Shown here piece after piece: positions 1-23,985 of a DNA stretch of 64,000 nucleotides (the stretch's first letter is position 1; every line of letters starts with the position of its first letter). The notes beneath the pieces are model-generated. The model was given only the letters and a program-made list of their open reading frames with translations, was not told the origin of the DNA and made no database searches. Both the position numbers and the translations under genes were made by a program. Source of the DNA: Escherichia phage mistaenkt; sequence record MN850587.1; one strand, written 5' to 3'.

Positions 1-583
1 TACCGGACATTTCAAAGCCACCTTTTAGGACTTTACCAATGTCAAACAGGCAACAGTTAATACCACCAAATACCAAATCTCTCAGGTCATGAATGTAGAT
101 GAAACCTGCTTCAATAGCTTCAAGTTCTTCTGGTGTCAAGTGATACTGCTTGAAGATTTCTTTAGTCAGGTAGCCACGAATGATAGAACCTTTTGTAGAG
201 ATTAAGCTACTGTCAAAGTTAGCATTCTCACGGTCACCTAAGAAGAGGGTATCTTTGGTCTTCTGATAGAGTTCATCCCAATTCTGTGCAACCTCTTTAC
301 GATAGTTACGATAGGTTGAATAAGATTCATAAATCTCGTGATTAACTTCTGCTAAAGCCCCTTCAACAATGCTGTGAATGTCATCTACAGAAATCAGCAA
401 AGTATTCTGGTTAGAAGCCTTTACAAGAATCCGCATAAAAGCTGACTCAAGAGCATGGACAACCTCTAACGGGAGTTCTTTATAGCCAACTCGGTTAGCT
501 GACTTTGTAACTGCTGCTAGGACTTTCTTAATATCTGGTTCTTCAAGTGAGCCATTCTTTTTAATAATTTGTACTTTGACCAT
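1..583 (-). CDS. nrdD: Anaerobic (class III) ribonucleoside-triphosphate reductase, N-terminal portion; gene continues off the left edge
   Basis: ATG at 581-583 preceded by AAGGAG; ATP-cone-like N-terminus then IHDLRDL...GGINCCLFDIGKVLKGGFEMSG, which matches the conserved NrdD block as I recall it from E. coli NrdD; C-terminus not in window. Confidence 0.75.
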   Translation of the reverse strand, partial: MVKVQIIKKNGSLEEPDIKKVLAAVTKSANRVGYKELPLEVVHALESAFMRILVKASNQNTLLISVDDIHSIVEGALAEVNHEIYESYSTYRNYRKEVAQNWDELYQKTKDTLFLGDRENANFDSSLISTKGSIIRGYLTKEIFKQYHLTPEELEAIEAGFIYIHDLRDLVFGGINCCLFDIGKVLKGGFEMSG

Positions 584-2144: not shown

Positions 2145-2416
2145 AATGGTAGGTTTCCTGTTTCATAAAATTCTCTGGCTTCTGACGCTGTTAAAACTTG
2201 CCAACGGTCAACTTTAAACATATCAAGAGACCTTGCATAAGTGTTGCTTGGGTTAAAGCAATCAATGTAACGAAGATGCTCTTTCCAAGAACCATCTGGC
2301 ATTTTAACTTTCAGATGATAGTCTGCAATATAATATAGAGACTCTCTTGGAATATAATACAGATACAAAGCACAGTTTGGTTCTCTGTTCCTTGCATCTT
2401 GAATGAGTTCTAACAT
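2141..2416 (-). CDS. Hypothetical protein (91 aa) between nrdA and nrdB
   Basis: ORF track; start overlaps the nrdB region (ATGA-type coupling). Confidence 0.45.
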   Translation of the reverse strand: MLELIQDARNREPNCALYLYYIPRESLYYIADYHLKVKMPDGSWKEHLRYIDCFNPSNTYARSLDMFKVDRWQVLTASEAREFYETGNLPL

Positions 2417-2425
2417 GGTTTCTCC

Positions 2426-2446
2426 AAAAGGGGCTTTACAGCCCCC
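2426..2446 (-). terminator. Hairpin GGGGC-TTTACA-GCCCC with T-run on minus strand, between nrdA stop and next ORF
   Basis: Inverted repeat read directly; may be attenuator or processing site rather than full terminator. Confidence 0.35.
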
Positions 2447-2453
2447 TGTTTAG

Positions 2454-4688
2454 TTAAACTCCGCAACCTTCACAGTAAGCGTCTTGGAGTGCTGACTTAC
2501 CAACACCAATACGACTGTTAAGGTAGTACATAGTTTTCATCCCAACTGAGTTAGCATAAATCATGTACTTCAAAGCTTGCTCTAATGATACCTTTTTCGA
2601 TTTTGAATAGTCAACATAGAAATCTGAAGAGATAGCTTGACCAGTGAATTTTTGAACAATTGCATAGCAATCAATCATATCAAAGGTGTCAATATCCCAA
2701 GCAATTTCATAGACATACTTCAACTCTTCGTAATCTGGAACGATAAATAAAACGTTACCAGTTGCTGACTTCTTGGTTAAGATGAAGTCACGAATTGGGT
2801 ACAAACCATTTGTCGTATTAGTTGCCAGTGAAGAACTCTCATTAGGCATGTAAGCCTCAAGTACAGAGTTTCTGATACCACCATTTGCTTTAATACGGTC
2901 TGCTAAGTCATCCCAATCATAACGAAGTTTTGCATCGTGTTTTGTATCAATCTTCCTGTTAGCTGTCTTCGGAGGAACCCAACCTTCAGGATACTTGGTG
3001 AACTTCATATATTCAGGTACACCACGCTCTTTTGCAAGTCTTAGTGAAGCCTCATGCAGATAGTAAGAGTGCATCTCTGCAAGTTCATGTAGCTTCGTTT
3101 TACCTGCTCTTGAAGAATAGTTCACGTAGTTCTTCGCAAGGTAGTGAGCCACATTCGTAAGGCCAATCCCAACAGAACGACGTTTCTGAACGTGGTTACG
3201 CATTGACGGATACGGATAGTCCATAAGGTCAATAACGGAGTCAACCATTGCAAGAGCATAATAAGCAACGTCAGCGTATTCATCTTCTGTGATTCTCCCT
3301 GCTACCAGACTAGCTAAGAAGCAAAGAGCAACTTCACCATCTTCTTTAGGTGCTGTGTAACTGTAAAGGTCACGTTCATCTTCAAACCCGTAAACTGGCA
3401 GTATAATTTCCATGCACAAGTTAGACATTTTCAAAGCTTCTTTAAACGGTGTGTGTGTGTTCGCATTGTTCGTAAAGAACGGATACACACGACCTGTGGC
3501 ATAACGTTGCTGGATGAACAGCTTGGCAACTTCACGAGCCTTAACACGTTTATGCTTAACACCTGAATGCACTGCGTGACCGACTGCCATAGCAAACTCA
3601 TCAGCAGATGCTGTGTAGAACATGTCATAAAGCTTTGGAGCGTCCTTGTAAGAGAACAGCAACCAATCTGTGTCATACTGTACACACTGCCAGAAATAGT
3701 CATTTGCACCAAATGAATAGTCCATCTCATTAATACGCTTCGAAGGAACCGTTGTAGGATGCTTCAAACGCAGTAAATCTTCAATCTGCGGGTCTAGGGC
3801 AGTATAGAAGTTGTTAGCTGAACCACCACGACTCTTCTGCTTATTGGCCTCTACAGCAGCACGTACAAGCTTGTAGTAAGGAAGCTTACCCATGTGTTCA
3901 ATGGTGTTTTGACGAATACCATCACCAATTGTACGGGTCTCCATAAGCATACCAATACCAGCTTGCTTGGTGGTCATATCATAAGCTACCTTAGTAGCAA
4001 TGCCAAGAGACTCAGCAGTGTCATTAGCCTTGATTAAGCAGCATGACGCATAACCTGACTTAGTAGCACGTAAACCATTCAGATAAGGCGTAGGGGCGTT
4101 AATCTTCAGGTCAGACAGGTAAGTGTACAGCTTGATAACATCTTCCAGTCTACGGTGCTTAGGTTGTCTCTCAAAGGCTTTCATAGCCATACCCATAAAC
4201 ATAAATTGTGGGGATTCAAACAGACGACCTGACTTGATATCTCGGATGCCATACTTGTCACGGAACTGTTTCAGTACTGCATAACCGTAAGAGATATCTT
4301 TTGAGTGAACAATGTGACCTTGTAAATAGTCAATCTCTTGTTCGGTGTAATCCATGTGTTCCCACAAACCCATTTGCTCCATCTTCATAACGAAGTTGAA
4401 CAGTTGAGGAACTTTTGTGAAACCACCAAAGGCTTCTTTGTAGATGATACCAAGGAGTAATCGACCAGCCATATCAGAGTACTCTTGAGTCTGCTTATCA
4501 ATACAAACGTCAATCATAGCTTGGTGCATCTCTTTGGTAGAGCAACCTTCATAAACACGCTTCATGGCTTCCATAGTTACTTCTGACCAAATGATTCCTC
4601 GTTTGTCAGCCCATGAAGCCCATTTGTTTAAACGTTCTGGTTCGAATGGCACGATTGTACCGTCAGATTTGCGAATGGTCTTAATCAT
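2454..4688 (-). CDS. nrdA: Ribonucleotide reductase class Ia large (alpha) subunit
   Basis: 744 aa; N-terminal ATP-cone (MIKTIRKSDGTIVPFEPERLNKW), overall RNR large-subunit character, operon with nrdB and glutaredoxin. Confidence 0.9.
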   Translation of the reverse strand: MIKTIRKSDGTIVPFEPERLNKWASWADKRGIIWSEVTMEAMKRVYEGCSTKEMHQAMIDVCIDKQTQEYSDMAGRLLLGIIYKEAFGGFTKVPQLFNFVMKMEQMGLWEHMDYTEQEIDYLQGHIVHSKDISYGYAVLKQFRDKYGIRDIKSGRLFESPQFMFMGMAMKAFERQPKHRRLEDVIKLYTYLSDLKINAPTPYLNGLRATKSGYASCCLIKANDTAESLGIATKVAYDMTTKQAGIGMLMETRTIGDGIRQNTIEHMGKLPYYKLVRAAVEANKQKSRGGSANNFYTALDPQIEDLLRLKHPTTVPSKRINEMDYSFGANDYFWQCVQYDTDWLLFSYKDAPKLYDMFYTASADEFAMAVGHAVHSGVKHKRVKAREVAKLFIQQRYATGRVYPFFTNNANTHTPFKEALKMSNLCMEIILPVYGFEDERDLYSYTAPKEDGEVALCFLASLVAGRITEDEYADVAYYALAMVDSVIDLMDYPYPSMRNHVQKRRSVGIGLTNVAHYLAKNYVNYSSRAGKTKLHELAEMHSYYLHEASLRLAKERGVPEYMKFTKYPEGWVPPKTANRKIDTKHDAKLRYDWDDLADRIKANGGIRNSVLEAYMPNESSSLATNTTNGLYPIRDFILTKKSATGNVLFIVPDYEELKYVYEIAWDIDTFDMIDCYAIVQKFTGQAISSDFYVDYSKSKKVSLEQALKYMIYANSVGMKTMYYLNSRIGVGKSALQDAYCEGCGV

Positions 4689-4708
4689 TATTTTAGAGTC
4701 CTACAGGT

Positions 4709-4732
4709 GAAAAAGGGTCTCCGAAGAGACCC
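4709..4732 (-). terminator. Intrinsic terminator-like hairpin (GGGTCTC-TTCG-GAGACCC plus T-run on minus strand) just upstream of nrdA
   Basis: Same stem-loop core as 602-623; followed on the minus strand by TTTTTCAC. Confidence 0.5.
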
Positions 4733-4740
4733 ATTAGAGA

Positions 4741-5076
4741 TTAAATGCTAAAGATTTGTTTACTTTGCCAAAGTTCATAGAACTTGTGAGAAACCTTAGT
4801 CAGTGAAGCTTTTGACATTGCGTTGCAGTACCACCAACGTTTAGTTTCATCAAACAGTTTTTCAAGGTCTTCGTGCAGGTTATCTTCCATTCGTGAAATA
4901 ACAAAGTTACCACGCTTCTTACCAGTAACACGACCAAACTTGATATCACTTCGCCCTTTACAATCCTCTGTGTACATCACTATGTCACCGAACCGTAAAG
5001 GTTTGTCAAACTTATCTACTCCAAGTTCAACGCCAGCTTTTACATCTTCAATTGTAAGCTTATTTGCTTTAGACAT
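4741..5076 (-). CDS. Hypothetical protein (111 aa)
   Basis: ORF track only. Confidence 0.45.
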   Translation of the reverse strand: MSKANKLTIEDVKAGVELGVDKFDKPLRFGDIVMYTEDCKGRSDIKFGRVTGKKRGNFVISRMEDNLHEDLEKLFDETKRWWYCNAMSKASLTKVSHKFYELWQSKQIFSI

Positions 5077-6128: not shown

Positions 6129-6337
6129 TAAACCTCCTGAAACAGTTTCTGCTGAGACTCAATATAATCCAGTCTGCCTTTCAGTTCAACACGTTTGTTA
6201 ATCAGGTGCTGAATCTGGGACTCAAGAGCCTCCATTTCGGACTCCGTAGCTGCTTTAGCTTTGACAATTGCATCTTTCAGTGCTGCAATGTGGCTGTCAA
6301 TTTTAGCTACGTGGTCATTCTTAATTTTGTTAAACAT
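6128..6337 (-). CDS. Small coiled-coil protein (69 aa)
   Basis: ORF track; heptad-like charged/hydrophobic pattern. Confidence 0.4.
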   Translation of the reverse strand: MFNKIKNDHVAKIDSHIAALKDAIVKAKAATESEMEALESQIQHLINKRVELKGRLDYIESQQKLFQEV

Positions 6338-6341
6338 AATC

Positions 6342-6842
6342 TTATTCTCTCTCGTTAAGTTTCATGATTTTATGGATTCTCTTCTCAGCATCTTCATAAG
6401 TCTCTTTGGTAAGAAACTTGATTGCTGCAATGTTTGCATTGTAGAAGAGTCGAAGCTTGGAGTCAATCCTTTTTGTCATGACGTCAAACTTATGTTGGAG
6501 GTTAGCTTCTCCGTAGACCAACCCACCTCGCGTATAATAAGTTTGCACAATATAGAAGTCAAACTCTTTTTCACCGAAAGTTTCAATATCTTTCTTAATG
6601 TACTCAGAAGAGGTCTGGTAAACCATCCAGTCACTCTCTTTTGTCACAATCTTACGTCTGGCCTTTCCAGCTACTTTCTTCTTGGTGACATTGTTAAACT
6701 GCTTCTTACCAATGTAATACTGTCCAGTCTTTTTGCAGTACACTAAGTAAACGAAACCAAAATACTTAGCGGGGTCAATCTCCCCGCACAGTGAAATCCA
6801 ATGCCCATATTCAGGGCAATTGCCAAAACCTTTAATCTTCAT
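6342..6842 (-). CDS. GIY-YIG family homing endonuclease (166 aa)
   Basis: GFVYLVYCKKTGQYYIGKK matches the GIY-(10-11 aa)-YIG motif; free-standing between replication genes. Confidence 0.65.
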   Translation of the reverse strand: MKIKGFGNCPEYGHWISLCGEIDPAKYFGFVYLVYCKKTGQYYIGKKQFNNVTKKKVAGKARRKIVTKESDWMVYQTSSEYIKKDIETFGEKEFDFYIVQTYYTRGGLVYGEANLQHKFDVMTKRIDSKLRLFYNANIAAIKFLTKETYEDAEKRIHKIMKLNERE

Positions 6843-13734: not shown

Positions 13735-16434
13735 ATGGAAAACGTAGATTTTGAAAACTTGCACTTGGTAGGTGATACCGAAACTGATGGGTTACTCCTT
13801 GAGTTCACAAAAGCACACGTAATGGCATTTGCAGATTACAAAGATGACAGTGACGAACCTGCTGTGTGGGTCTTCACTGATGAACCTATTCTTGGTCACA
13901 AATGCACTAAGTACATTAAAGGTGGTCTTCGTGAAGGTGTAGAGTTTGCTCTTAAGGCAAAACGTCTCTGCATTCATAACGGCCTTGGCTATGACTGGTG
14001 GGTGTTCAATCACATTGCACCGGACTTATGGAACTTTGATAATCCGAAGTGTAAACCTTGGGGAGACTTCTTTCAGGATTCTCTTATCCAGTCTCGTGTT
14101 CAGTGGATGGATAGACCTACACCGAAAGGTTACAAAGGTGCTCATGGTTTGGCTGCATGGGGTGCTCGTGTTGGTGTTCGTAAACCAGAGATTGAAGAGT
14201 GGGGTGTTTGGAATGCTGATATTCTGAACCGTGTTGTTGAGGATATTCGAATCAACGCCAAAACTAAACGTGCTCTTGATAACGAATACCTGAAGCTGAA
14301 GAAGTGTGGTGTAGACACTTATGAAACCTACATGCGAGCTAAAGAAACATCTTTCTGGATGAGTCAGCAAGCTATCAACGGTTGGAAAGCTGATATTGAA
14401 CTTATGCAGTTCCATGTCAAAGAACTTGACAGAATGACTGATGAATTAGCTGCTGAAGTTGAGCCTCATCTGCCACCGACTATCAAGACGAAAGGTAAAG
14501 TTACTGGTGAAGAGTTTGCAAGGGCTTGGAACGAGTATGTTGAGACATTTGGTGAAGCAGATGGTTTGAAGCGTATCACTAAGTATCCAAAAACTAAGTT
14601 CCGTCAGCAGGTTCGCAATGGTGAGATGCAGACTTACGCTATCAAACCTTTTGGTAAGCCAACTACCAAGATTTTCAACATTGAGAAGCGTAACTGCTAC
14701 ACTCCAACTAATACGGTTACTGGAGAAGAGTACAAAGAAGGTTTCGTGGCAATGAAAGATGCTCGTGCAGTTTGTAACGAGTTGAATGCTGCGATTGATA
14801 AGAAGTGCAAAGACTGGAAGCCAGTTAAAACTGTGAAGACTGTGAAGTACTACAACAATCACGTAGTAAATCACTTTGAACTTGAGTCAAGTCGTTACAC
14901 AGGTTTGATTGATGCACCTTATACACCGATTGAGTTTGAAGTTTCACGTATGACTCAGGTTGCTGTTGTGAAGGATTATCTGAAAACTCTTGGCTGGATT
15001 CCTGATGACTGGAACTACAAGAAAGATTCTGATGGTCGTCCGGTGAAGGTTTGTCGCTTCAAAGACAACAAGAAGATGATTCGTAAACATCCTAAATGGC
15101 AAGAGATGGTGGAACGTTGCGGATTGAACTATGTTGAACATGAAGGTGTACAGTACATCGAACACAACTGGTCTGTGAAGAAGTACACAGATTTGCTTGA
15201 ACCTTGCTTGATTCGTACTTCACCGAAACTAACTGAATCATCTTACGATACGATTGAAGGTGAACTTGGACAGAAGATTGCGAAGTACTATACTTTAATG
15301 CACCGACGCAGAACTATCGAGAACTCAAAGGATGACGAAAAAGGTTGGTTAAACCAGATTCGTCCAGATGGTCGTTTGAGTGCTGGTGCAATGGTGTTTG
15401 GTACTTCAACTGGACGTATGACACAATATGGAATTGTGAACGTACCTTCTGGGGCTGCTGTTTATGGTGAACCAATGAGGGCAGTCTGGATTTGTGAAGA
15501 GGGAACCAACGTAGTATCCGTTGATATGAACTCTGCACAGCTTGTTTTACTGTGTAACTTTATGGGCGATAAAGAGTTCACCAAAGCGGTAACTCAAGGT
15601 AAAGAAGAGATTGAGTTTATCCGTCAGGAAGATGGCAGATATTACTGCAAACACTTTGACGAATACCTGAATCCAGAAGTTGATAAGTATCTACGTTATG
15701 ACTCTGAAAACGACTTGTACGTAGTTTATTCAGGTACTGATGCTCATACACTGAACAGCATCTACTTCAGCTTGAACGAAGAACAAGATATATTGACTTG
15801 TCGTATGACTCAGGATGAAAATCTTCTTCACGAAATTAGTAAAGGTCGTAAGAAAGCTAAGAATGGTATCTATGCGTTACTGTTCGGTGCTGGTGATGAG
15901 AAGTTTGCTAAGACGATTAAAGCTGCGACTACTCAAGAAGGTGCATTAACTAAACAGACTTACTTTGTTCGTTTACCGAAGATTAAGAAACTGTTAGATG
16001 ACTTGGAAGCTGACTTTAAAGCAACTAAGAAAGCACTCGAAGAGGTATTTGGTAAGACTGCTGCAATTGCTAAAGGTGGTTTTGTCAAGGTTGCTGGAGC
16101 ATGGTTGTGGTGTAAGTCTCCACACAAACTGTTGAACTACTTGCTGATGGGTTCAGAAGCACAAGTTCAGAATGAAGCAATCAACCTTGCATGTCGTCGT
16201 ATGATTGATGAAGGTTTGATGAAGTTGAATGGTCGTAAGCCAGCTATCGGTGCTCGTTTACTCTGTGCATATCACGATGAAACAAGTTGGGAATGTCCAG
16301 AGAGCATGACAGCAGAAGTTAAGGCTGTAACTGACTGGTACTACGGACAAGCTTCTAAGAACTTAGGGCTTCGTAAAGAAACTCTGGTAACAGGGACTGG
16401 TAAAGTTGGTAAGTCTTGGTATGAGGTGCATTGA
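13735..16434 (+). CDS. Family A (Pol I-like) DNA polymerase with 3'-5' exonuclease domain
   Basis: 899 aa; Exo I motif DTETDGL at N-terminus, motif B RKKAKNGIYALLFGAG, motif C YHDE; GAGGGAG RBS. Confidence 0.92.
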   Translation: MENVDFENLHLVGDTETDGLLLEFTKAHVMAFADYKDDSDEPAVWVFTDEPILGHKCTKYIKGGLREGVEFALKAKRLCIHNGLGYDWWVFNHIAPDLWNFDNPKCKPWGDFFQDSLIQSRVQWMDRPTPKGYKGAHGLAAWGARVGVRKPEIEEWGVWNADILNRVVEDIRINAKTKRALDNEYLKLKKCGVDTYETYMRAKETSFWMSQQAINGWKADIELMQFHVKELDRMTDELAAEVEPHLPPTIKTKGKVTGEEFARAWNEYVETFGEADGLKRITKYPKTKFRQQVRNGEMQTYAIKPFGKPTTKIFNIEKRNCYTPTNTVTGEEYKEGFVAMKDARAVCNELNAAIDKKCKDWKPVKTVKTVKYYNNHVVNHFELESSRYTGLIDAPYTPIEFEVSRMTQVAVVKDYLKTLGWIPDDWNYKKDSDGRPVKVCRFKDNKKMIRKHPKWQEMVERCGLNYVEHEGVQYIEHNWSVKKYTDLLEPCLIRTSPKLTESSYDTIEGELGQKIAKYYTLMHRRRTIENSKDDEKGWLNQIRPDGRLSAGAMVFGTSTGRMTQYGIVNVPSGAAVYGEPMRAVWICEEGTNVVSVDMNSAQLVLLCNFMGDKEFTKAVTQGKEEIEFIRQEDGRYYCKHFDEYLNPEVDKYLRYDSENDLYVVYSGTDAHTLNSIYFSLNEEQDILTCRMTQDENLLHEISKGRKKAKNGIYALLFGAGDEKFAKTIKAATTQEGALTKQTYFVRLPKIKKLLDDLEADFKATKKALEEVFGKTAAIAKGGFVKVAGAWLWCKSPHKLLNYLLMGSEAQVQNEAINLACRRMIDEGLMKLNGRKPAIGARLLCAYHDETSWECPESMTAEVKAVTDWYYGQASKNLGLRKETLVTGTGKVGKSWYEVH

Positions 16435-16946
16435 TGCAAGATTGTGGTTTTACTCATGAGCAATTAAAATCATGGATTCACTACGACCCCTTAACAGGTG
16501 TCTTAACTTGGATTGGTAGACCTCCTAACAGTGGTAGGGTGGTTATAGGCAGTCAAGCTGGGTCAATCAAAAGGACAAAATCTGGTGTGTATCTTCATAC
16601 ACAGATACTAGGTTACAGGACAGGGAATCACCGTATTGCTTGGTTCTGGATGACTGGAAAATGGCCTGATAAACATATTGACCATAAGGATGGAGATGGT
16701 CTAAACAATGCTTGGGAGAATCTTAGAGAAGCCACGAAAGAGCAGAACATGGCTAACAGGAGACAACCTAGAACATCAAAGAGTTTAAAAGGCACAAGTA
16801 GAAGCAAATCTGGAAAGTGGATTGCACAGATTAACCATAATGGAAAGACTAACCATATTGGCACATACATGACCGAGCAAGAAGCCCACGAAGCTTACTG
16901 TGAAGCTGCTATAAAACTCCACGGAGATTTTGCAAAACTTAGTTGA
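16431..16946 (+). CDS. HNH homing endonuclease with C-terminal AP2-like DNA-binding domain
   Basis: 171 aa; HIDHKDGDGLNNAWENLREATKEQN (HNH); C-terminal GKWIAQINHNGKTNHIGTYMTEQEAHEAY (AP2-like); start overlaps polymerase stop (ATGA). Confidence 0.7.
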   Translation: MMQDCGFTHEQLKSWIHYDPLTGVLTWIGRPPNSGRVVIGSQAGSIKRTKSGVYLHTQILGYRTGNHRIAWFWMTGKWPDKHIDHKDGDGLNNAWENLREATKEQNMANRRQPRTSKSLKGTSRSKSGKWIAQINHNGKTNHIGTYMTEQEAHEAYCEAAIKLHGDFAKLS

Positions 16947-16998
16947 CAAGGTGCTCATGGAAGAGTACCTTATACTATATATTGTATAGGAGACTTGT

Positions 16999-17199
16999 AT
17001 GACTATTTCAGAAATTGAAGTTCAACTGCAATGTGCTGGATATTCTCAAAGTGAGATTGAGGCTATGTGCATCATCATTTGCAGTAGCCATAAGCACCTC
17101 AAGCTTTCTAATGAAAATCTTTTCAAGGTTGATATTTTTATCGCTGGGGGCAAGATTATCAAGGATAAGACAGGCTACCTTAAAGGTGAACGTCTATGA
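16999..17199 (+). CDS. Hypothetical small protein (66 aa)
   Basis: ORF track only. Confidence 0.35.
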   Translation: MTISEIEVQLQCAGYSQSEIEAMCIIICSSHKHLKLSNENLFKVDIFIAGGKIIKDKTGYLKGERL

Positions 17200-17405
17200 G
17201 CCATCGTGGAAGAACTCATCTTGCCATGATGCAAGGGGCTTCAAAAGAGACTATCAAGAATCGGAAGAAAACTCTTTTTGACAGAATGAATAGACTCATT
17301 GATAATGCAAGTCTACCTAACTCTGAAAAGGTTTTCTTGAAAGGGAATCTGAAGAGTATTGCACAGGAACTTATTGATATTGAATTTTGGAGACACCAAA
17401 AATGA
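17196..17405 (+). CDS. Hypothetical small protein (69 aa)
   Basis: ORF track; ATGA overlap with neighbour. Confidence 0.4.
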   Translation: MSHRGRTHLAMMQGASKETIKNRKKTLFDRMNRLIDNASLPNSEKVFLKGNLKSIAQELIDIEFWRHQK

Positions 17406-17653
17406 GCAATAAAGAGCAAGAAGCTTTAGCAATCTTCAAGAGTGAAGACAAATCAATAGCTTTTGTCTCAGAGGCTTGGTGCAGAGATTTGGGGTATGAT
17501 TGGTATCTCTTCTTATGCGCTAAGAAAGATGTTAAGCCAGTTGATGAAACCCGATTCAAAGAACTGTATAATGTCTGCCAAGATGGTTATGAAGAACATT
17601 ACAAAGGTTCTTTGAATCCTGTAAATTCAAAAGCTTCAGATTTATTTTATTGA
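17402..17653 (+). CDS. Hypothetical small protein (83 aa, start MSNKEQEALAIF)
   Basis: ORF track, start trimmed to the ATG overlapping the upstream stop. Confidence 0.4.
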   Translation: MSNKEQEALAIFKSEDKSIAFVSEAWCRDLGYDWYLFLCAKKDVKPVDETRFKELYNVCQDGYEEHYKGSLNPVNSKASDLFY

Positions 17654-17663
17654 GAGGTTTAAA

Positions 17664-17909
17664 ATGTTAAAATTATTGATACCAGCTTTAGCAGTCCTAC
17701 TGGTTGGGTGTAACCCTTCTTATGAGAATAAGGATGCTTCTTACAGACTTCCTCCAGAAATGCAAGACTGCAAGATTTATAAGCCTAATGGTGATGCCAT
17801 TAGCAGGGATGTTATTGTAGTTCGCTGCCCAAATTCTCAGACGACAACTTCTTACAAGTATGGGAAGAATAGTCAGTCACACGCCACAGTTTTTGATGAG
17901 GGATATTGA
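17664..17909 (+). CDS. Putative lipoprotein (81 aa)
   Basis: N-terminal signal peptide with lipobox (LLIPALAVLLVGC). Confidence 0.5.
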   Translation: MLKLLIPALAVLLVGCNPSYENKDASYRLPPEMQDCKIYKPNGDAISRDVIVVRCPNSQTTTSYKYGKNSQSHATVFDEGY

Positions 17910-17910
17910 T

Positions 17911-18117
17911 ATGCAGGTTCTGGTAAACTTTATCTATAAGTATGAAAACATCTTCAGCACTATGACTGTAGCTCAACGCAATCCAGTTATTCCCCGAGAA
18001 GGGGAGACTGTTGAGATTAATGATTGGAACTACAGAGTTGAAGAGGTCAAGCATAAACTTAAAGATGGTTATGACCACCAAGTTGTAAATGTGTATTTAA
18101 AAGGTAAGTGGCAATGA
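17911..18117 (+). CDS. Hypothetical small protein (68 aa)
   Basis: ORF track, start trimmed to ATG at 17911. Confidence 0.35.
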   Translation: MQVLVNFIYKYENIFSTMTVAQRNPVIPREGETVEINDWNYRVEEVKHKLKDGYDHQVVNVYLKGKWQ

Positions 18118-18356
18118 GTAGAGAAGACCAGTTAATTGATATGCAAAATGACAAAAATGAGGCAATATCCATAATCCCAATATTGTGGGGGCATGACTGC
18201 ACATATGGTAACTATCTGTGTGTTTGTGAAGACCGAAACATTGAACCCGTAAGCCGTAATGAGTATCAAAAACACTTAAAGGCTCTTGACAATTACTTCA
18301 CAGATAATAAATGCTCTCAGATTTCAAGTGAGGTCTTGCATGAAGATTTTTATTAA
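18108..18356 (+). CDS. Hypothetical small protein (82 aa)
   Basis: ORF track only. Confidence 0.4.
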   Translation: MAMSREDQLIDMQNDKNEAISIIPILWGHDCTYGNYLCVCEDRNIEPVSRNEYQKHLKALDNYFTDNKCSQISSEVLHEDFY

Positions 18357-18437
18357 AGTTATTGATGAAGATTTTGGAGGGTGCTCTTGGCACTCATTTT
18401 TCACAAAAGGTTGTCTAGCTTGTGAGGCACGTAATAA

Positions 18438-19538
18438 ATGACAATTCTGTACAAACAAAATAAAGATGGTTCTTTCAACGTCTGGTCATGCGTTGCTGTA
18501 GGTGACAAAGTGGTTACCACGTATGGCAAAGAAAACGGTAAAATGATGTTTGAAGAGTACACAGCAGAACCGAAGAACATCGGTAAAAAGAATGAGCGTA
18601 ATGCTGAACAGCAAGCTCTCTTTGAAGTTACTGCTAAGTATAAGAAGCAAGTTGACCGTAAAGGTTATGCTTATTCAAAATCTGCTGCACAGGAAGTTGA
18701 GAAGGTTGGTGTACAGCTTGCTCATGATGCTTCCAAGGTTAGCCACAAAAAATATCTGAAATTTCCTGCTGATGCTCAACCGAAACTTGATGGTGTTCGT
18801 TGCAGAATTTCAAGGGATGTTGATTCAGTAAGCTTCACAGCTTATTCTCGTGAAAATACTGTTTACAATGTGCCTGAAGAGTTAATTCCTGATTTGCTTC
18901 TCATGCTTAAGTGTCACCCACAAGTTGAAGACTTTGACGGTGAGATTTATGCTCATGGCTGGGACTTAGAAGATATTGTATCCATGATTAAGAATGCTGA
19001 CAATCCAGACCGTCACCTTCTTAAATTCTACTGGTATGATATCTGTGACAATACTAAATCATGGCCTGAGCGACGAGAGGTTATTGATAACTCACCTATC
19101 GTTGAACTTGGTGATGCTTGCAGGGTTGTTCCTGTACAGACTATCCGTGTAAACTCTTGGGAAGAGTTCGACAAAGCCCATGATAATTGGGTTAAGCTGA
19201 AGTTTGAAGGGGCTATGTACCGTTCAATCTCTGAAGAATCTTTCTACGAGTGTAGTCACCGTTCATACTTCTTAATCAAGCATAAGAAGATGCACACTGA
19301 AGAGTTTAAAGTAACTGGTGTGAAGACTGATAAGCGTGGACATGGTAAGTTTGTTGTAGAGACTCTTCCTAACGTCTTTGTGGATGTTTCATGGAAGACT
19401 ACCCATGAGAAGAAACAGTATCTTGCTGAACACCCTGAAGAGTTTATCGGGAAGCCTTTGACGGTTCAGTTCCAGAAGATGACTCGCAAGGGGTCTTTGC
19501 AGTTCCCTGTTGGGTTAGTTATTAGAGATTATGAATAA
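18438..19538 (+). CDS. ATP-dependent DNA ligase (candidate)
   Basis: 366 aa; KxDGxR nucleotidyl-transferase motif I (PKLDGVRCRI), motif III-like FDGEIYAHG, motif IV-like EGAMYRS, motif V-like LIKHKK. Confidence 0.6.
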   Translation: MTILYKQNKDGSFNVWSCVAVGDKVVTTYGKENGKMMFEEYTAEPKNIGKKNERNAEQQALFEVTAKYKKQVDRKGYAYSKSAAQEVEKVGVQLAHDASKVSHKKYLKFPADAQPKLDGVRCRISRDVDSVSFTAYSRENTVYNVPEELIPDLLLMLKCHPQVEDFDGEIYAHGWDLEDIVSMIKNADNPDRHLLKFYWYDICDNTKSWPERREVIDNSPIVELGDACRVVPVQTIRVNSWEEFDKAHDNWVKLKFEGAMYRSISEESFYECSHRSYFLIKHKKMHTEEFKVTGVKTDKRGHGKFVVETLPNVFVDVSWKTTHEKKQYLAEHPEEFIGKPLTVQFQKMTRKGSLQFPVGLVIRDYE

Positions 19539-19544
19539 AAGTTG

Positions 19545-19572
19545 TTGACATACTCTCTCCGGTAGTTATACT
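19545..19572 (+). promoter_or_regulatory. Sigma70-like promoter TTGACA-N16-TATACT upstream of the secreted-protein gene
   Basis: -35 TTGACA at 19545-19550, -10 TATACT at 19567-19572; a 9-bp inverted repeat (CCGGTAGTT / AACTACCGG) brackets the -10 and predicted start. Confidence 0.45.
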
Positions 19573-19622
19573 AGCAATATAAAATTTGATATAGGAACTA
19601 CCGGATGAGTTAGGAGAAGAAA

Positions 19623-20003
19623 ATGAAAAAGATTATGGTAGGTGTCATTCTGGCAACTCTGAGTTTTGGTGCATCAGCTATGAAGATGCCTGAAGCAGAC
19701 TTTAGCAAGGTCTCTACAGAGGCTTGTCAGATTGTTCGTAAAGTCGTAACAGATGCTGGAGAGTTGGCTAAACCGTTATCTTCTCCAACTGTCATGGAAA
19801 TGTCTGACCGCATCACTGATTACAATTATCGTGTGATGGCAGATTACTACGAAGCTGTCTCTGATGCTATGGTCACTCAGGATATTGATTTGCTTGATGA
19901 CAAAGACATTGAGAAGGTTGAAGACACCAAGCGTGACATGATGGATGAAACTTTCAAAGGTGTTCATTATTTTGTTGAAAAGCGTACTTGTGTAGGTCTA
20001 TGA
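19623..20003 (+). CDS. Putative secreted/periplasmic protein (126 aa)
   Basis: N-terminal signal peptide MKKIMVGVILATLSFGASAMK; GGAGAAG RBS. Confidence 0.5.
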   Translation: MKKIMVGVILATLSFGASAMKMPEADFSKVSTEACQIVRKVVTDAGELAKPLSSPTVMEMSDRITDYNYRVMADYYEAVSDAMVTQDIDLLDDKDIEKVEDTKRDMMDETFKGVHYFVEKRTCVGL

Positions 20004-20004
20004 T

Positions 20005-20208
20005 ATGAAGAAGAATCGTTGCAAGAAGAACTATGGAGAAGTGCTTGACGATGAAGGTCATGTCATCTTCCGAGTTTACTGTGCAGATGACTCTGAAGTA
20101 GATAAAGCACTTGATGACTATATCAACGGTACTCGTGAAAACGTCAGAGCAACAAACATAGATTCATTGATTGACACTTCCAGAAAACGGAGGAAGAAAG
20201 ATGAATGA
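20005..20208 (+). CDS. Hypothetical small protein (67 aa)
   Basis: ORF track only. Confidence 0.35.
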   Translation: MKKNRCKKNYGEVLDDEGHVIFRVYCADDSEVDKALDDYINGTRENVRATNIDSLIDTSRKRRKKDE

Positions 20209-20500
20209 AGTCTTTGACCCTTACGCCCCACAAGATAAGTGGGAAGCTGATAGAGAGTATGAGATGGAAAGTTATATCTGCCCAATGGATGTAGACGAAA
20301 TGAGAGAGTTCGTTGCATTCCGTTTTGAAAAAGAAATTGAGAAAAGAAAACTTTCTCAGGCACAAGTTGCAAAGATTTGTGATATCTCTCAAAGTCGTGT
20401 TTCCAACATAGTCAATGGTACTGGAAAGATTACCCTTGAATACATGTTGAAAGCTTGTGAAAAACTTGGTGTTAACTTCAACTTAAGGCTGTCAGATTAA
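20201..20500 (+). CDS. Helix-turn-helix (XRE-like) DNA-binding protein
   Basis: LSQAQVAKICDISQSRVSNIVNG is a classic HTH; start trimmed to ATG at 20201 (GGAAGAAAG upstream). Confidence 0.55.
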   Translation: MNEVFDPYAPQDKWEADREYEMESYICPMDVDEMREFVAFRFEKEIEKRKLSQAQVAKICDISQSRVSNIVNGTGKITLEYMLKACEKLGVNFNLRLSD

Positions 20501-20501
20501 T

Positions 20502-20861
20502 ATGAAACGTGAAAATGCAATCTTCAAAGGTAACTTTGCAATTGGCTTCTATGGGAAACCTACCGAAGCTGAGAAGGTGTGGGGGCATGAGATTCTTGAA
20601 GAGATGATTCCAAAACTCCAAAAAGGAGAAATAAAACATTCTGAAAAGAATCGTGTGAAAGGTTATATGGCAATTGGTTCAGCTATATCCAACATCAAAC
20701 TTGAGACGACATGTGCAAAAGATGTTCGTAACTCATTTATAAAGGAACTCTTCAACAACCTTGATGGTGTAGATGCTACCGCTATCTGGCTTGATGTTGA
20801 TGGTGCTAAGTATACAACTTTCGTATTTAAAAATGAGGATATCAAATGTCTCTTCCCGTAA
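20502..20861 (+). CDS. Hypothetical protein (119 aa)
   Basis: ORF track only. Confidence 0.45.
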   Translation: MKRENAIFKGNFAIGFYGKPTEAEKVWGHEILEEMIPKLQKGEIKHSEKNRVKGYMAIGSAISNIKLETTCAKDVRNSFIKELFNNLDGVDATAIWLDVDGAKYTTFVFKNEDIKCLFP

Positions 20862-21346
20862 AAATTGACTTGTTCTTCGGATACAATCTGATGACAGGAT
20901 GTATGCTTAGTCTTCCAAAGTCTCCTTATCGTACTGAGAAAGGTGCTGTGAAACGTGCTGCACACTACAATAATGACTTAGGTCGTTTGCAGACGATTTA
21001 CAAGTGGCTTGAAGAAGATGGTCGAGTAAATGAGTACTTCCATAAACTTCGTATGGCTAACGAAGAAAATAAGATGGGCTATGAACTGTTCCCACGTCTT
21101 TACAAAGTGACTTCACCAACTTCTCAAACTTGGAATGAGAAGTCTATTGAGGGTTACAAAAAGGTCACAATGTCTCCGTTTAGTAGTGGTGCAGAGTTTG
21201 AGAAGCTACGTGAGATAATTTATCAGACTGTTGCAAAGCGTGTTGCAAAGGGTCTTTCTTATAATGAAAAGATTGACTGGAACACTCAAAAGGTTATACA
21301 ATTCTTTGCATACGATAATGACAAACAAACTTTTGTAGAGGTTTAA
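20846..21346 (+). CDS. Hypothetical protein (166 aa)
   Basis: ORF track only. Confidence 0.45.
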   Translation: MSLPVKIDLFFGYNLMTGCMLSLPKSPYRTEKGAVKRAAHYNNDLGRLQTIYKWLEEDGRVNEYFHKLRMANEENKMGYELFPRLYKVTSPTSQTWNEKSIEGYKKVTMSPFSSGAEFEKLREIIYQTVAKRVAKGLSYNEKIDWNTQKVIQFFAYDNDKQTFVEV

Positions 21347-21347
21347 C

Positions 21348-21866
21348 ATGAAGATTGGAAATAGCTTAACAGAGCCAGAAGCAATTCTACTTAAGGGTGT
21401 TATCAAAGAACATCTGAAAAATCGTAGACTTCAAGAGGGCACAATCCTTATTGAGACAAACTATGAAGCTGGAACGATTGAGTTTCTTGATGAAGATACT
21501 GGTGATGCACTTTGCCTTTTACCAACTCACCTCTTCACTACTGAATTTCGAGATTCTAAATCAATCTCTGTGAAGCTGGTTCCAAGCATTGAGTTGTATG
21601 AAGGTATGCAATACCCACGTAGCTTCAAAGCTTTACTTAACATCTTCATAGACGACATTGTAGATTTAGTAAGGCCAGAAGCTGGTGAGTATGTAATTAC
21701 TGCTGAGTGTCAGAATAGCAGCTACATCACTCTCGCTGGTAATCTCTCAACGATGAACTTCTTAGATTTCATCCCGAAACACTTTGAAGACTTCCTTTCA
21801 TCGTGTGGTGATGACCTTGATTTCATTGTAAAACTGGAACAAGAATATAAGGTGAATAAGAAATGA
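21348..21866 (+). CDS. Hypothetical protein (172 aa)
   Basis: ORF track only. Confidence 0.45.
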   Translation: MKIGNSLTEPEAILLKGVIKEHLKNRRLQEGTILIETNYEAGTIEFLDEDTGDALCLLPTHLFTTEFRDSKSISVKLVPSIELYEGMQYPRSFKALLNIFIDDIVDLVRPEAGEYVITAECQNSSYITLAGNLSTMNFLDFIPKHFEDFLSSCGDDLDFIVKLEQEYKVNKK

Positions 21867-22159
21867 AAATCTTTAAAGTTGAACACTGTTACATGCAGAG
21901 TGGTGAGCCAATTCGTTGTCCACATTGTGGTGGCACAGACTTCCAAGGTGAGGTTACAGATATCATCTCTGGTCATGTAGCAGAAGAGTATACTCGTTGC
22001 CGTGGTTGTATGAAGATTGTTTCATTTTGGGCTTATGGAAGTTATGAGCCACACCCACACATTATTTACCATCCAGTTAAAGTGGTTAAGAACGTCATCA
22101 ACTGGTTTATCATTAAGGGTTTTTCAAATGATTCGTTTAGTATTTGCAAGTGGTCGTAA
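21863..22159 (+). CDS. Small zinc-ribbon protein (98 aa)
   Basis: CPHCGG...CRGC pair of CxxC motifs. Confidence 0.4.
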   Translation: MKIFKVEHCYMQSGEPIRCPHCGGTDFQGEVTDIISGHVAEEYTRCRGCMKIVSFWAYGSYEPHPHIIYHPVKVVKNVINWFIIKGFSNDSFSICKWS

Positions 22160-22673
22160 AGGTGAGTTTGGTACTCCTGATGGGATGCCTTGGGAACGTA
22201 ATCGTGAAGATATGAAAGAGTTTAAAAAGCTGACTCAAAACCAGCTTGTAATCATGGGTAACGAAACTTTCAAGACTCTTGGACGAAAACCTTTACCAAA
22301 TCGTGAGAACATGATTCTGACAAACAACCTCCCATATTACGGGATAGACTTTGATAATGATGGCTTTGTATTTGCGAAGGTTGACCCAGATTCTTTTGGT
22401 GCATTCTTGAAGAAGATTGACAGCCAGATTGATGAAAACGTATGTGTGATTGGTGGTGCAAACATCTTAAAAGCAGCTTTACCGTTTGCTGATGAAGTTT
22501 ACCACACAGTTATCTATGAAATTACTAAAGAGCCAACTGTGTATCTTCCTGAAGAGGGATTCTTTGAGTATTTACACGAGCCTGAACTCTTTGCTAGAAT
22601 ACAGGCTAAACCTCTGGCTGATAAATCTGGGGTTGTAAATTTCTATGTTCCACAAGTAAGAGGACGTTTCTGA
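22128..22673 (+). CDS. folA: Dihydrofolate reductase
   Basis: 181 aa from ATG 22128; GMPWERNREDMKEF, VIMGNETFKTLGRKPLPNRENMILT and VIGGANIL match DHFR signature regions; immediately upstream of thymidylate synthase. Confidence 0.8.
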   Translation: MIRLVFASGRKGEFGTPDGMPWERNREDMKEFKKLTQNQLVIMGNETFKTLGRKPLPNRENMILTNNLPYYGIDFDNDGFVFAKVDPDSFGAFLKKIDSQIDENVCVIGGANILKAALPFADEVYHTVIYEITKEPTVYLPEEGFFEYLHEPELFARIQAKPLADKSGVVNFYVPQVRGRF

Positions 22674-22674
22674 T

Positions 22675-23571
22675 ATGTCACAAGCAGATGTAAGCTACAA
22701 AAATATTCTGAACCATGTTTTAACAGTTGGTGAGCAGCGTAAAACCCGAACTGGTTCTGTAATTTCAACGTTCTCACCTCCAGAGTTTCGTTTTGATATG
22801 CGTACTGGTTTCCCTTTACTGACCTCTAAACAGGTTCTGACCAGACAAGTTATCGGGGAAGCTTTATGGTTCTTGAACGGTGAGAATAAACTTGGTCATC
22901 TTCGCTATCGTACTTGGGGAGAAAACGATGGAGAGCGTTGGACAATCTGGACAAATGACTTTGAACGCTGGCTTAAAACAACCTATGCAAGTGAGCAAGA
23001 TTGGTTAGATGATGCAGGTGGACGAATCTACGGTGTTCAGTGGAGAGCCTCAGAAGGTCATGGTGGCGTTACAGTTGACCAGCTAGACAATCTGATTACC
23101 AAGATGAAAAAGTCTCCTACAGACCGTTACATGCTGGTTAACGCTTGGAATGCTGCTGATATCTCAGCTAACACAATGGCATTACCACCTTGTCATGTAC
23201 TTTTCCAGATTTACATCTCGAATACTGGTGAAGTGGATTTAAAATGGTATCAACGTTCTGTAGACAGCTTTTTAGGTTTACCATTTAACATTGCATCTTA
23301 TGGTTTTATCTTGGAAGTGCTTTGTAAGATGACTGGATATACACCTCGTTACTTGATTGGTACTTTTGGTGATACTCAGATTTATCAGAACCATATGAAT
23401 CAGGTATTCCAGCTTTTAGGTAATGAAGAGTTTCCTGCACCGAAGTTTGAGATTGTTCAAGATTTGAAATGTCTGGATGACCTCAAGCATATGACTGCAA
23501 GTGACTTTATCGGTGGTTTCAAAGATTATCGACATGCAGGGAAGATTGAAGCTCCCTTGTCAGTAGGTTGA
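22675..23571 (+). CDS. thyA: Thymidylate synthase
   Basis: 298 aa; active-site region ALPPCHVLFQIY with catalytic Cys, R-x-x-x-W folate-binding pattern. Confidence 0.9.
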   Translation: MSQADVSYKNILNHVLTVGEQRKTRTGSVISTFSPPEFRFDMRTGFPLLTSKQVLTRQVIGEALWFLNGENKLGHLRYRTWGENDGERWTIWTNDFERWLKTTYASEQDWLDDAGGRIYGVQWRASEGHGGVTVDQLDNLITKMKKSPTDRYMLVNAWNAADISANTMALPPCHVLFQIYISNTGEVDLKWYQRSVDSFLGLPFNIASYGFILEVLCKMTGYTPRYLIGTFGDTQIYQNHMNQVFQLLGNEEFPAPKFEIVQDLKCLDDLKHMTASDFIGGFKDYRHAGKIEAPLSVG

Positions 23572-23582
23572 TAGATACAAAA

Positions 23583-23606
23583 AAGGCTCCTTTTTACGGG
23601 AGCCTT
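23583..23606. terminator. Bidirectional intrinsic terminator between convergent thyA and the minus-strand structural block
   Basis: AAGGCTCC-8 nt loop-GGAGCCTT with T-runs on both strands. Confidence 0.7.
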
Positions 23607-23610
23607 AAAC

Positions 23611-23985
23611 TTATTTTTTCTTAGCATTTTGAGTGTTCTGTTCAGTGATTGCTTGCAAAGCCGATACAGACTGTGCTAGGTTATTAACACTGTCAGAGAA
23701 TTTATCAAGGGTTTTGGTCAACTTGGCGTTTTCACCCTTTACGTTCTCTAGCTGAACCTTCTGGTTCTCCATGCCTAATTGCAGGAGTTTCATGTCAGAC
23801 TGTAAATCACGAATAGCTGAATAGTTGCTTTTGTTGTAACTATCAAGCTGTTGTAACTTTGTCGAAACGGAAACTTCCTGCTTCCCACTAGACACCTGCA
23901 TTGTAGTGTACATACCAATTACACTGAAGATACCCACAACAATTGCACCAATATTATTTTTGAAAGCATCCTCTAACCATCTCAT
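23611..23985 (-). CDS. Membrane-anchored coiled-coil protein (124 aa); possible lysis-related (holin/spanin-like) or tail-fibre accessory protein
   Basis: N-terminal TM segment IGAIVVGIFSVIGMYTT followed by coiled coil; function is inference from position. Confidence 0.35.
   Translation of the reverse strand: MRWLEDAFKNNIGAIVVGIFSVIGMYTTMQVSSGKQEVSVSTKLQQLDSYNKSNYSAIRDLQSDMKLLQLGMENQKVQLENVKGENAKLTKTLDKFSDSVNNLAQSVSALQAITEQNTQNAKKK

Follow-up and report, generated by a model that had tools for sequence, protein, structure and literature searches.

The 64,000-nucleotide stretch of Escherichia phage mistaenkt analysed here (sequence record MN850587.1; hereafter the window) comes from a Felix O1-like phage, a myovirus in the subfamily Ounavirinae. 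At 17664..17909 it carries a small gene whose 81-residue product (MLKLLIPALAVLLVGCNPSYENKDASYRLPPEMQDCKIYKPNGDAISRDVIVVRCPNSQTTTSYKYGKNSQSHATVFDEGY) has the hallmarks of an exported, lipid-anchored protein. A first-pass annotation had listed an 81-residue open reading frame (ORF) at this place, and we confirmed it with exactly these coordinates, an ATG start codon and the plus strand. The gene occurs at all 22 Ounavirinae loci sampled and in over 200 records of this subfamily. Comparison with the 22 loci gave a ratio of non-synonymous to synonymous substitutions (dN/dS) of ~0.10. A [GAS]-C lipobox is present in 249 of 249 retrieved family members (244 scored by regular expression, 5 by eye), and the product matches phrog_902, a family without assigned function, at E = 8.1e-17 over residues 1-76. 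This conservation indicates that the ORF is real, and a chance ORF was ruled out by the conservation and the dN/dS value. It is thus well supported that 17664..17909 is a genuine Ounavirinae gene for a small exported DUF4884/phrog_902 lipoprotein.

The lipoprotein gene and its surroundings

At the nucleotide level, Enterobacteria phage CHB7 (Suspvirus) shares 95.6% identity with the 2.7 kb around the lipoprotein gene, and Mooglevirus phages of Shigella and Citrobacter share 91-94%. The gene is listed as hypothetical protein gp41 in CHB7 and as hypothetical gene 43 in Michonne. In a more distant blastn comparison of an 800-bp stretch, the part that could be aligned with Felixounavirus extends from the start of the region coding for the mature domain into the start of the downstream gene, which begins 1 nt past the lipoprotein stop codon.

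The N-terminal part of the product reads MLKLLIPALAVLLVGC/NPSYENKD..., where the stroke marks the predicted cleavage point. We defined a lipoprotein precursor by a positively charged n-region, an uncharged h-region and a lipobox of the form [LVI][ASTVI][GAS]C with its cysteine at about position 15-35. The product has a charge at K3, an uncharged hydrophobic stretch from L4 to V14, and the lipobox LVGC with its cysteine at position 16. It also shows the signal-peptide features of PROSITE PS51257. The lipobox pattern by itself is not beyond chance, as a six-frame search of the window with a PS51257-like regular expression gave 5 ORFs, versus 1.7 +/- 1.1 in shuffled sequence. When a stricter filter for hydrophobicity and charge was applied to these six-frame ORFs, the lipoprotein gene was the sole survivor. 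A 166-residue ORF, annotated in CHB7 as a HigA2-like helix-turn-helix (HTH) regulator, also fits the loose expression at its N-terminus (...NLMTGC...). Since it does not have a proper hydrophobic core, we regard this fit as a chance match, which shows that the pattern alone is weak evidence. The signal peptide and LVGC lipobox named in the first-pass annotation are borne out by the sequence features together with their conservation, and signal peptidase II is predicted to remove residues 1-15.

Table 1. Features of the lipoprotein gene and its surroundings in the window
Feature	Coordinates	Strand	Remarks
Co-directional replication and nucleotide-metabolism gene string containing the lipoprotein gene	13735..23571	+	In order: DNA polymerase, AP2-HNH endonuclease, small ORFs, DNA ligase, two HTH regulators, dihydrofolate reductase (DHFR), thymidylate synthase
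AP2-domain HNH homing endonuclease gene	16431..16946	+	TTG start; directly after, and overlapping, the end of the DNA polymerase gene
Upstream paralogue	17387..17653	+	phrog_9065
Shine-Dalgarno sequence GAGAGG	17652..17657	+	6 nt 5' of the ATG; overlaps the stop of the upstream gene; read from the sequence
Prolipoprotein coding sequence	17664..17909	+	81 residues, DUF4884/phrog_902; ATG start, stop codon included
Signal peptide, residues 1-15 (predicted)	17664..17708	+	n-region MLK, h-region LLIPALAVLLV, G15; from sequence; architecture kept in homologues
Lipobox L13-V14-G15-C16	17700..17711	+	From sequence; C16 invariant in homologue alignments
Cys16, predicted lipid-modified first mature residue	17709-17711	+	Kept in 249/249 members
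Mature 66-residue periplasmic domain	17709..17906	+	Predicted five-stranded beta
Cys36	17769..17771	+	Invariant in homologue alignments; predicted disulfide partner of Cys55
Signature VVRCPNSQT, residues 52-60	17817..17843	+	Includes Cys55 (17826-17828); V53, C55, P56, N57 and T60 nearly invariant
Downstream paralogue	18108..18356	+	phrog_9065
Sigma-70-like site TTGACA-16-TATACT	19545-19572		Best such site of the region
Second exported protein	19623..20003	+	126 residues
HTH regulator (HigA2-like in CHB7)	20846..21346	+	166 residues
Bidirectional intrinsic terminator closing the string	23583..23606	.	Hairpin is t79/t80 in the Felix O1 paper (PMC3185647)
Holin gene	23611..23985		Outside the string
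Tail-fibre genes	from 24259	opposite	

The description of the gene as one among small early genes holds, since it lies with other small ORFs in a string of replication genes (Table 1). A terminator scan of the string found no strong internal terminator ahead of the lipoprotein ORF; the promoter and terminator scans gave no excess over shuffled sequence. In Felix O1, ORFs 95, 96, 93, 90, 89 and 88 were detectable by reverse-transcription PCR (RT-PCR) from 5 min and were maximal at 5 or 25 min, and morphogenesis ORFs peaked at 60 min (PMC3185647). The former ORFs belong to the same transcription unit as the lipoprotein ORF, which in Felix O1 carries the old name ORF213 (gp92 by our own count) and does not appear in that RT-PCR table (PMC3185647). 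"Early to middle" is a fair description of the timing of the lipoprotein gene. As the gene is probably transcribed with the replication genes, the protein would be present ahead of virion assembly and lysis. In the other lineages examined, its setting is always a cluster of small genes next to a replication or nucleotide-metabolism gene, namely DnaB, primase gene 61, DNA ligase, DHFR or nrdC.11.

Several other genes of the string were noted. The lipoprotein gene and its 68-residue downstream gene are flanked by a pair of distant paralogues, whose products both match phrog_9065 and find each other at E = 6e-6 in pairwise BLASTP. The upstream copy occurs in just 6 of the 22 Ounavirinae loci, indicating that this spot is variable. 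The AP2-HNH endonuclease gene is present in CHB7 and Michonne and missing from many relatives (alignments begin at query position 43). A second exported protein is encoded further along the string, with a signal peptide of the signal peptidase I type (MKKIMVGVILATLSFGASA) and a match to phrog_4332, also without assigned function, at E = 4e-58; the sigma-70-like site listed in Table 1 precedes it. This product may be a soluble periplasmic partner or an analogue of factors of the Spackle type.

A lipoprotein family of Gram-negative phages

The 81-residue protein is an ordinary member of DUF4884/phrog_902, a family of unassigned function. It is 98% identical to the database protein P0001, which has a precomputed PF16225 (DUF4884) hit. 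The same hit is precomputed for all 120 listed homologues, and P0044 is named as DUF4884 with no weak mark. A local Pfam-A hmmscan recovered PF16225 in 0 of 86 members even at E <= 10, and the PF16225 assignment thus comes solely from the precomputed table; the local copy of Pfam-A may be without the PF16225 model. Pfam-A and NCBIfam scans of the lipoprotein ORF and its neighbours gave nothing significant. An exhaustive profile search returned 1,227 clusters (at 50% identity) at E <= 1e-3, 686 of them at E <= 1e-10, and the best 150 listed matches are all short, at 71-154 residues.

Inspection of the alignments revealed a family signature, Y-x-L-P-x-[EG]-[LM]-x-D-C-x-[IV]-Y ... V-V-R-C-P-N-S-x-T-x-T-x-Y-x-x-G-K, of which the 81-residue protein has C36, C55, V53, P56, N57 and T60. 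A pattern of the VVRCPNSQT type retrieved further related loci. Exactly two cysteines beyond the lipid-modified one are present in 207 of the 244 members scored by regular expression. We modeled the protein twice with AlphaFold2, as the full-length chain and as the mature domain (86 and 121 sequences), and obtained the same strand order at low predicted local distance difference test scores (pLDDT 64.9 and 61.7). The models suggest a five-stranded beta domain, in which one strand is close to the lipid anchor, another begins at Cys36, a short one finishes at Cys55, and the C-terminus forms a hairpin rich in Ser and Thr. Two fold searches of the PDB with these low-confidence models gave no match to a protein of known function, and a fold search of a viral structure library returned other family members only. 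Sequence and profile searches of the PDB yielded signal-peptide matches only.

The residue that follows the lipid-modified cysteine (position +2) bears on membrane sorting. In lipoproteins of Enterobacterales, aspartate at +2 is a signal for retention in the inner membrane. The protein of the window has asparagine in this position (residue 17), which predicts Lol-dependent sorting to the outer membrane. Across the family, aspartate (54 members, ~22%) and glutamate (51) are the commonest +2 residues, followed by serine (34), threonine (28), asparagine (25), glycine (23) and alanine (15). Asp+2 is found in members from phages of Klebsiella, Yersinia, Erwinia and Cronobacter and from E. coli jumbo phages. 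Judged from these sequences, the lipid anchor is apparently indispensable and the target membrane is apparently not fixed across the family.

The family is carried by hundreds of phages, including unrelated siphophages, myophages and podophages of Gram-negative hosts. Besides the Ounavirinae, members were found in T5-like Vibrio phages (Demerecviridae), the T4-like phages Acj61 and Aeh1, Obolenskvirus and Saclayvirus phages of Acinetobacter, Vequintavirinae, Stephanstirmvirinae, jumbo phages of Yersinia, Erwinia and E. coli, and a 77-kb Vibrio podophage. No family member was found in phage pSf-1. The T1-like phage Henu8 is reported to have a DUF4884 protein and a separate Cor (PMC12210894), which speaks against a Cor-type role. 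A scan of 185,579 bacterial species genomes with the pattern [VI]VRCPNS[SQ]T returned a single locus, in Hylemonella gracilis ATCC 19624 (NZ_AEGR01000062, 5980..6258), and the family pattern had no match in 72,556 plasmid records. The VVRCPNS type of the DUF4884 family is essentially phage-borne. The near-absence from bacteria is valid for this type only, since the pattern is narrow and a protein of Bacteroides thetaiotaomicron, BT_3183, is tabled as DUF4884 (PMC8931616).

The Hylemonella copy lies 3' of a truncated comM gene (Mg-chelatase-like, ending mid-domain) and 5' of two defence genes of the ABC-3C type (CTD10, DUF2326), and the locus looks like an integrated island. A further member, P0122, is encoded at 275..535 of the Acinetobacter baumannii contig JBANAW010000013 (111.5 kb), and members of its cluster lie on contigs of 111-113 kb labelled "plasmid". 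These plasmid-like replicons are possibly phage-plasmids, and the presence of a member on them indicates that the family is not confined to strictly virulent phages. Both settings speak for a possible role in counter-defence, in which the lipoprotein would neutralise envelope-located host immunity or an exported toxin, such as an abortive-infection sensor, a bacteriocin or contact-dependent killing. The timing of the gene and the periplasmic location of its product are compatible with such a role. Defence systems are patchy, however, whereas this gene is well conserved and present in every Ounavirinae locus sampled, and scans against Pfam, PHROG and NCBIfam gave no anti-defence annotation, no PADLOC scan having been made. 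We consider counter-defence improbable.

Gene neighbourhoods and comparison with known phage systems

A search for conserved neighbour genes at 21 diverse loci found none, which argues for a single-gene module that acts alone or on a host component. In three unrelated phage lineages, the gene lies close to genes linked to the cell envelope. In the T4-like phage Acj61 (GU911519), the DUF4884 gene p058 is directly 5' of p057, a homologue of Spackle. Acj61p057 (6280..6591 of locus L050) is annotated as "hypothetical protein" with an over-long start, and an internal MKKF start gives a full-length Spackle homologue. It matches phrog_1586 at E = 5.6e-17 and Pfam T4_Spackle at E = 1.5e-4, the latter below the curated cut-off. 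The Acj61 gene order p058, sp-like p057, 61.1, 61 parallels the T4 order 61.4, sp, 61.2, 61.1, 61. At four Obolenskvirus loci, the DUF4884 gene lies one or two small ORFs 5' of a PF14373 (Imm_superinfect) gene. In the Saclayvirus vB_AbaM_B09_Aci01-1, a PspA/IM30-like gene (2242..2940 of locus L059) is located two genes 5' of the DUF4884 gene; its Pfam match is full-length, with E = 4.3e-7 just below the curated cut-off.

A membrane-stress protein like PspA/IM30 on a phage is unusual in itself. Acj61 encodes a second lipoprotein, p062 (4667..4942 of locus L050), four genes 5' of its DUF4884 gene, with the lipobox VSSGC and two further cysteines. Its match to phrog_902 is weak (E = 0.0036 across the full length), and it may be a divergent DUF4884 paralogue. 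In Aeh1 and Vibrio phage RYC, the DUF4884 gene is followed by a gene for a single-pass membrane protein and then by nrdC.11; the downstream genes were tested as homologues of T4 rI or rI.-1 and proved to be neither. Neighbours with transmembrane segments were seen at only ~6 of 24 loci.

Among the closest known systems are T4 Spackle (gp61.3) and Imm, the two superinfection-exclusion proteins of T4. Like the gene of the window, theirs are early genes set among replication genes, and their products act at the envelope of infected cells, as is predicted for the 81-residue protein. Spackle is soluble, helical and periplasmic and has a signal peptide of the signal peptidase I type, and Imm is an integral inner-membrane protein. 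The 81-residue protein differs from them in being a lipid-anchored, predicted beta domain without similarity to either. Identity with Spackle was rejected, with no Pfam or PHROG hit and an hhalign probability of 1.3%; the positive control, Acj61 p057, was recovered at the E-value given above. Identity with Imm (PF14373) was likewise rejected, as the signal peptide is the only transmembrane candidate and a profile hidden Markov model of the Obolenskvirus Imm matches nothing in the window.

In its build, the protein is reminiscent of two superinfection-exclusion lipoproteins, Llp of T5 and Cor of T1/phi80-type phages. T5 Llp is small, has a single intramolecular disulfide and is produced before lysis, and the genes for Llp and Cor adjoin a receptor-binding gene (PMC9586334). 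With its two conserved cysteines and Asn+2, the 81-residue protein may have a similar build, as a small phage lipoprotein of about 60 mature residues that would face the periplasm, contain one disulfide and be made before lysis. The Ounavirinae version is predicted, like Llp, at the inner leaflet of the outer membrane, whereas the ~22% of family members with Asp+2 are not. This likeness would fit a lipoprotein that switches off the receptor of its own phage from the periplasmic face. The gene of the window, however, is flanked by small ORFs, with the DNA polymerase gene on one side and the DNA ligase gene on the other, and has no receptor-binding gene beside it, the nearest tail-fibre gene being 6.3 kb away on the other strand. 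The DUF4884 family is also far larger and taxonomically wider than Llp and Cor, and its motif is common to phages with unrelated receptors and different tail types.

Alignment of the mature domains by hhalign gave a probability of 0.8% against Llp and 0.1% against gp84 of pSf-1, a Cor-like protein. An hhalign probability of 88.9% to Llp, obtained with the signal peptides included, was rejected as homology since it vanishes without them. The PDB profile search matched T5 Llp over the signal peptide only (E = 6.7), with no fold match. Membership in the Llp/Cor family was rejected, as there is neither similarity in the mature domain nor a receptor-binding gene as neighbour. Felix O1-type phages use lipopolysaccharide, a receptor without a protein surface in the periplasm that could be masked. 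The many Asp+2 members are predicted to stay in the inner membrane, and such variation in the predicted membrane counts against a mechanism that needs the periplasmic face of one outer-membrane receptor. Receptor masking of this kind is, in our judgment, quite improbable.

A small, predicted outer-membrane lipoprotein with periplasmic cysteine also resembles the o-spanins of the lambda Rz1 and T4 PseT.3 class, and a weak PHROG match to an Rz-like spanin (E = 0.058, residues 3-41 only) points the same way, towards a part in lysis as an o-spanin or as some other accessory lipoprotein. The gene belongs to the replication string, however, with neither a lysis cassette around it nor the holin or endolysin gene beside it, and it has no i-spanin neighbour. 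The related phage Michonne has a separate, annotated pair of overlapping i-spanin and o-spanin genes (139/138) near rIIB and apart from gene 43. With 5 prolines in 66 mature residues and five predicted beta strands, the mature domain is unlike the proline-rich, unstructured o-spanins. An o-spanin was rejected, and a part in lysis is very hard to credit.

Precedents for exclusion without a receptor exist elsewhere. Ltp of Streptococcus phage TP-J34 and the entry-exclusion lipoproteins of conjugative plasmids, such as TrbK, are small and tethered to the cytoplasmic membrane on its outer side, where they prevent DNA from entering once adsorption or mating contact has taken place. They provide a precedent for receptor-independent exclusion by a tethered domain, relevant to the Asp+2 members, by analogy only, as their hosts and machinery are different.

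Possible roles in the infected cell

The first-pass annotation had put the gene forward as a candidate for superinfection exclusion, by a block of receptors or of injection, or for modification of the host envelope. Receptor blocking of the Llp/Cor type is disfavoured, given the hhalign results, the gene position, the varied receptors and the Asp+2 members, while a broader exclusion or protection of the envelope gained circumstantial support from the Spackle, Imm and PspA neighbours. Tentatively, the most likely role of the lipoprotein is receptor-independent protection of the envelope of the infected cell, or superinfection exclusion. We count in its favor the conserved lipoprotein features, the very large and essentially phage-borne family, the position in an early replication block, the stand-alone gene, the Spackle, Imm and PspA neighbours, the single-pass membrane protein encoded next in Aeh1 and RYC, and the exported product of 19623..20003.

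By standard lipoprotein processing, the precursor would be exported by the Sec system, Cys16 would receive a diacylglyceryl group, signal peptidase II would cut before Cys16, and the new N-terminus would be acylated. A disulfide between Cys36 and Cys55 would staple a compact beta domain of ~60 residues, held ~10 residues from the lipid anchor and hence at the membrane surface. There it could serve as a stand-alone periplasmic binding module that renders the envelope of the infected cell refractory to further attack from outside. The effect would be superinfection exclusion or protection from lysis from without, in the sense of T4 Imm and Spackle. Its target might be a generic step after adsorption, namely the passage of the tail tip or ejection apparatus through the periplasm, or a conserved component of the host envelope. 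Masking of one particular receptor, as by Llp and Cor, would not be the mode; such a mode is disfavoured since phages that use different receptors share the signature and since the +2 residue is variable.

Several observations weigh against this exclusion role. The adjacency to Spackle, Imm or PspA genes was seen in 3 of ~15 lineages examined, all of them Acinetobacter phages, in a search for Imm and Spackle homologues that covered the sequence within ~6 kb of each locus, and some adjacency is expected by chance since small early genes are densely packed. In the window itself, the immediate neighbours of the lipoprotein gene are without transmembrane segments and are not envelope proteins. The low-confidence models, without a fold match, provide no structural support for any mechanism. 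The literature on DUF4884/PF16225, Felixounavirus lipoproteins and phage lipoprotein exclusion yielded annotation tables only and no functional study. Finally, a motif kept so strictly in phages of many host genera could be explained just as well by a conserved host target that has nothing to do with exclusion.

This last point leads to the main rival explanation, a modulator of the host envelope, whose domain would bind a conserved periplasm-exposed host protein and for which exclusion would be incidental. Candidate targets include a peptidoglycan hydrolase, a protease, a component of lipoprotein trafficking or outer-membrane biogenesis, or an envelope-stress sensor. Such binding would keep the envelope stable, hold off premature lysis or shut down a stress response while replication is under way. 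The strong conservation of the motif across hosts among the Gamma- and Betaproteobacteria points to a conserved partner on the host side, and the gene is under purifying selection and does not show the diversifying signature of an arms race. Given this strong purifying selection and the wide host range, a host modulator fits as well as exclusion. The stand-alone gene, its early-to-middle expression and the PspA/IM30-like membrane-stress gene nearby in Saclayvirus are also in its favor. Against it, searches of Pfam, NCBIfam, PHROG and PDB sequences, and the two fold searches with low-confidence models, revealed no known periplasmic inhibitor. Lipid anchoring is strict in all 249 members, the predicted membrane differs among them, and known inhibitor families such as MliC/PliC include soluble members. 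We regard a host modulator as somewhat unlikely.

Returning to receptor-independent exclusion, its most general form would make DUF4884 a pan-phage "envelope lock", in which a lipid-anchored domain of 60 residues shuts the infected cell to any further phage. It would do so by binding either a single machine that is exposed to the periplasm and conserved in all Gram-negative bacteria, or the generic ejection apparatus of phage tails that arrive later. We consider this general form unlikely. If true, it would define a receptor-independent class of exclusion that siphophages, myophages and podophages share and that differs from Llp/Cor, Spackle and Imm.

As a single gene, 17664..17909 is ordinary, being 98% identical to database proteins and carrying a catalogued domain of unknown function. 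At only 246 bp, it makes the key experiments cheap. As a whole, the DUF4884 family ranks with the more widespread proteins that virulent phages of Gram-negative hosts export, and it has a strictly conserved lipidation site, stand-alone genes and a predicted disulfide. Should it act in envelope protection or exclusion, this would matter for the design of phage cocktails, in which one phage could shut out another, and it could point to a conserved, druggable target in the envelope. A general factor of this kind would account for an early function that Felix O1-like, T5-like, T4-like and jumbo phages have all conserved.

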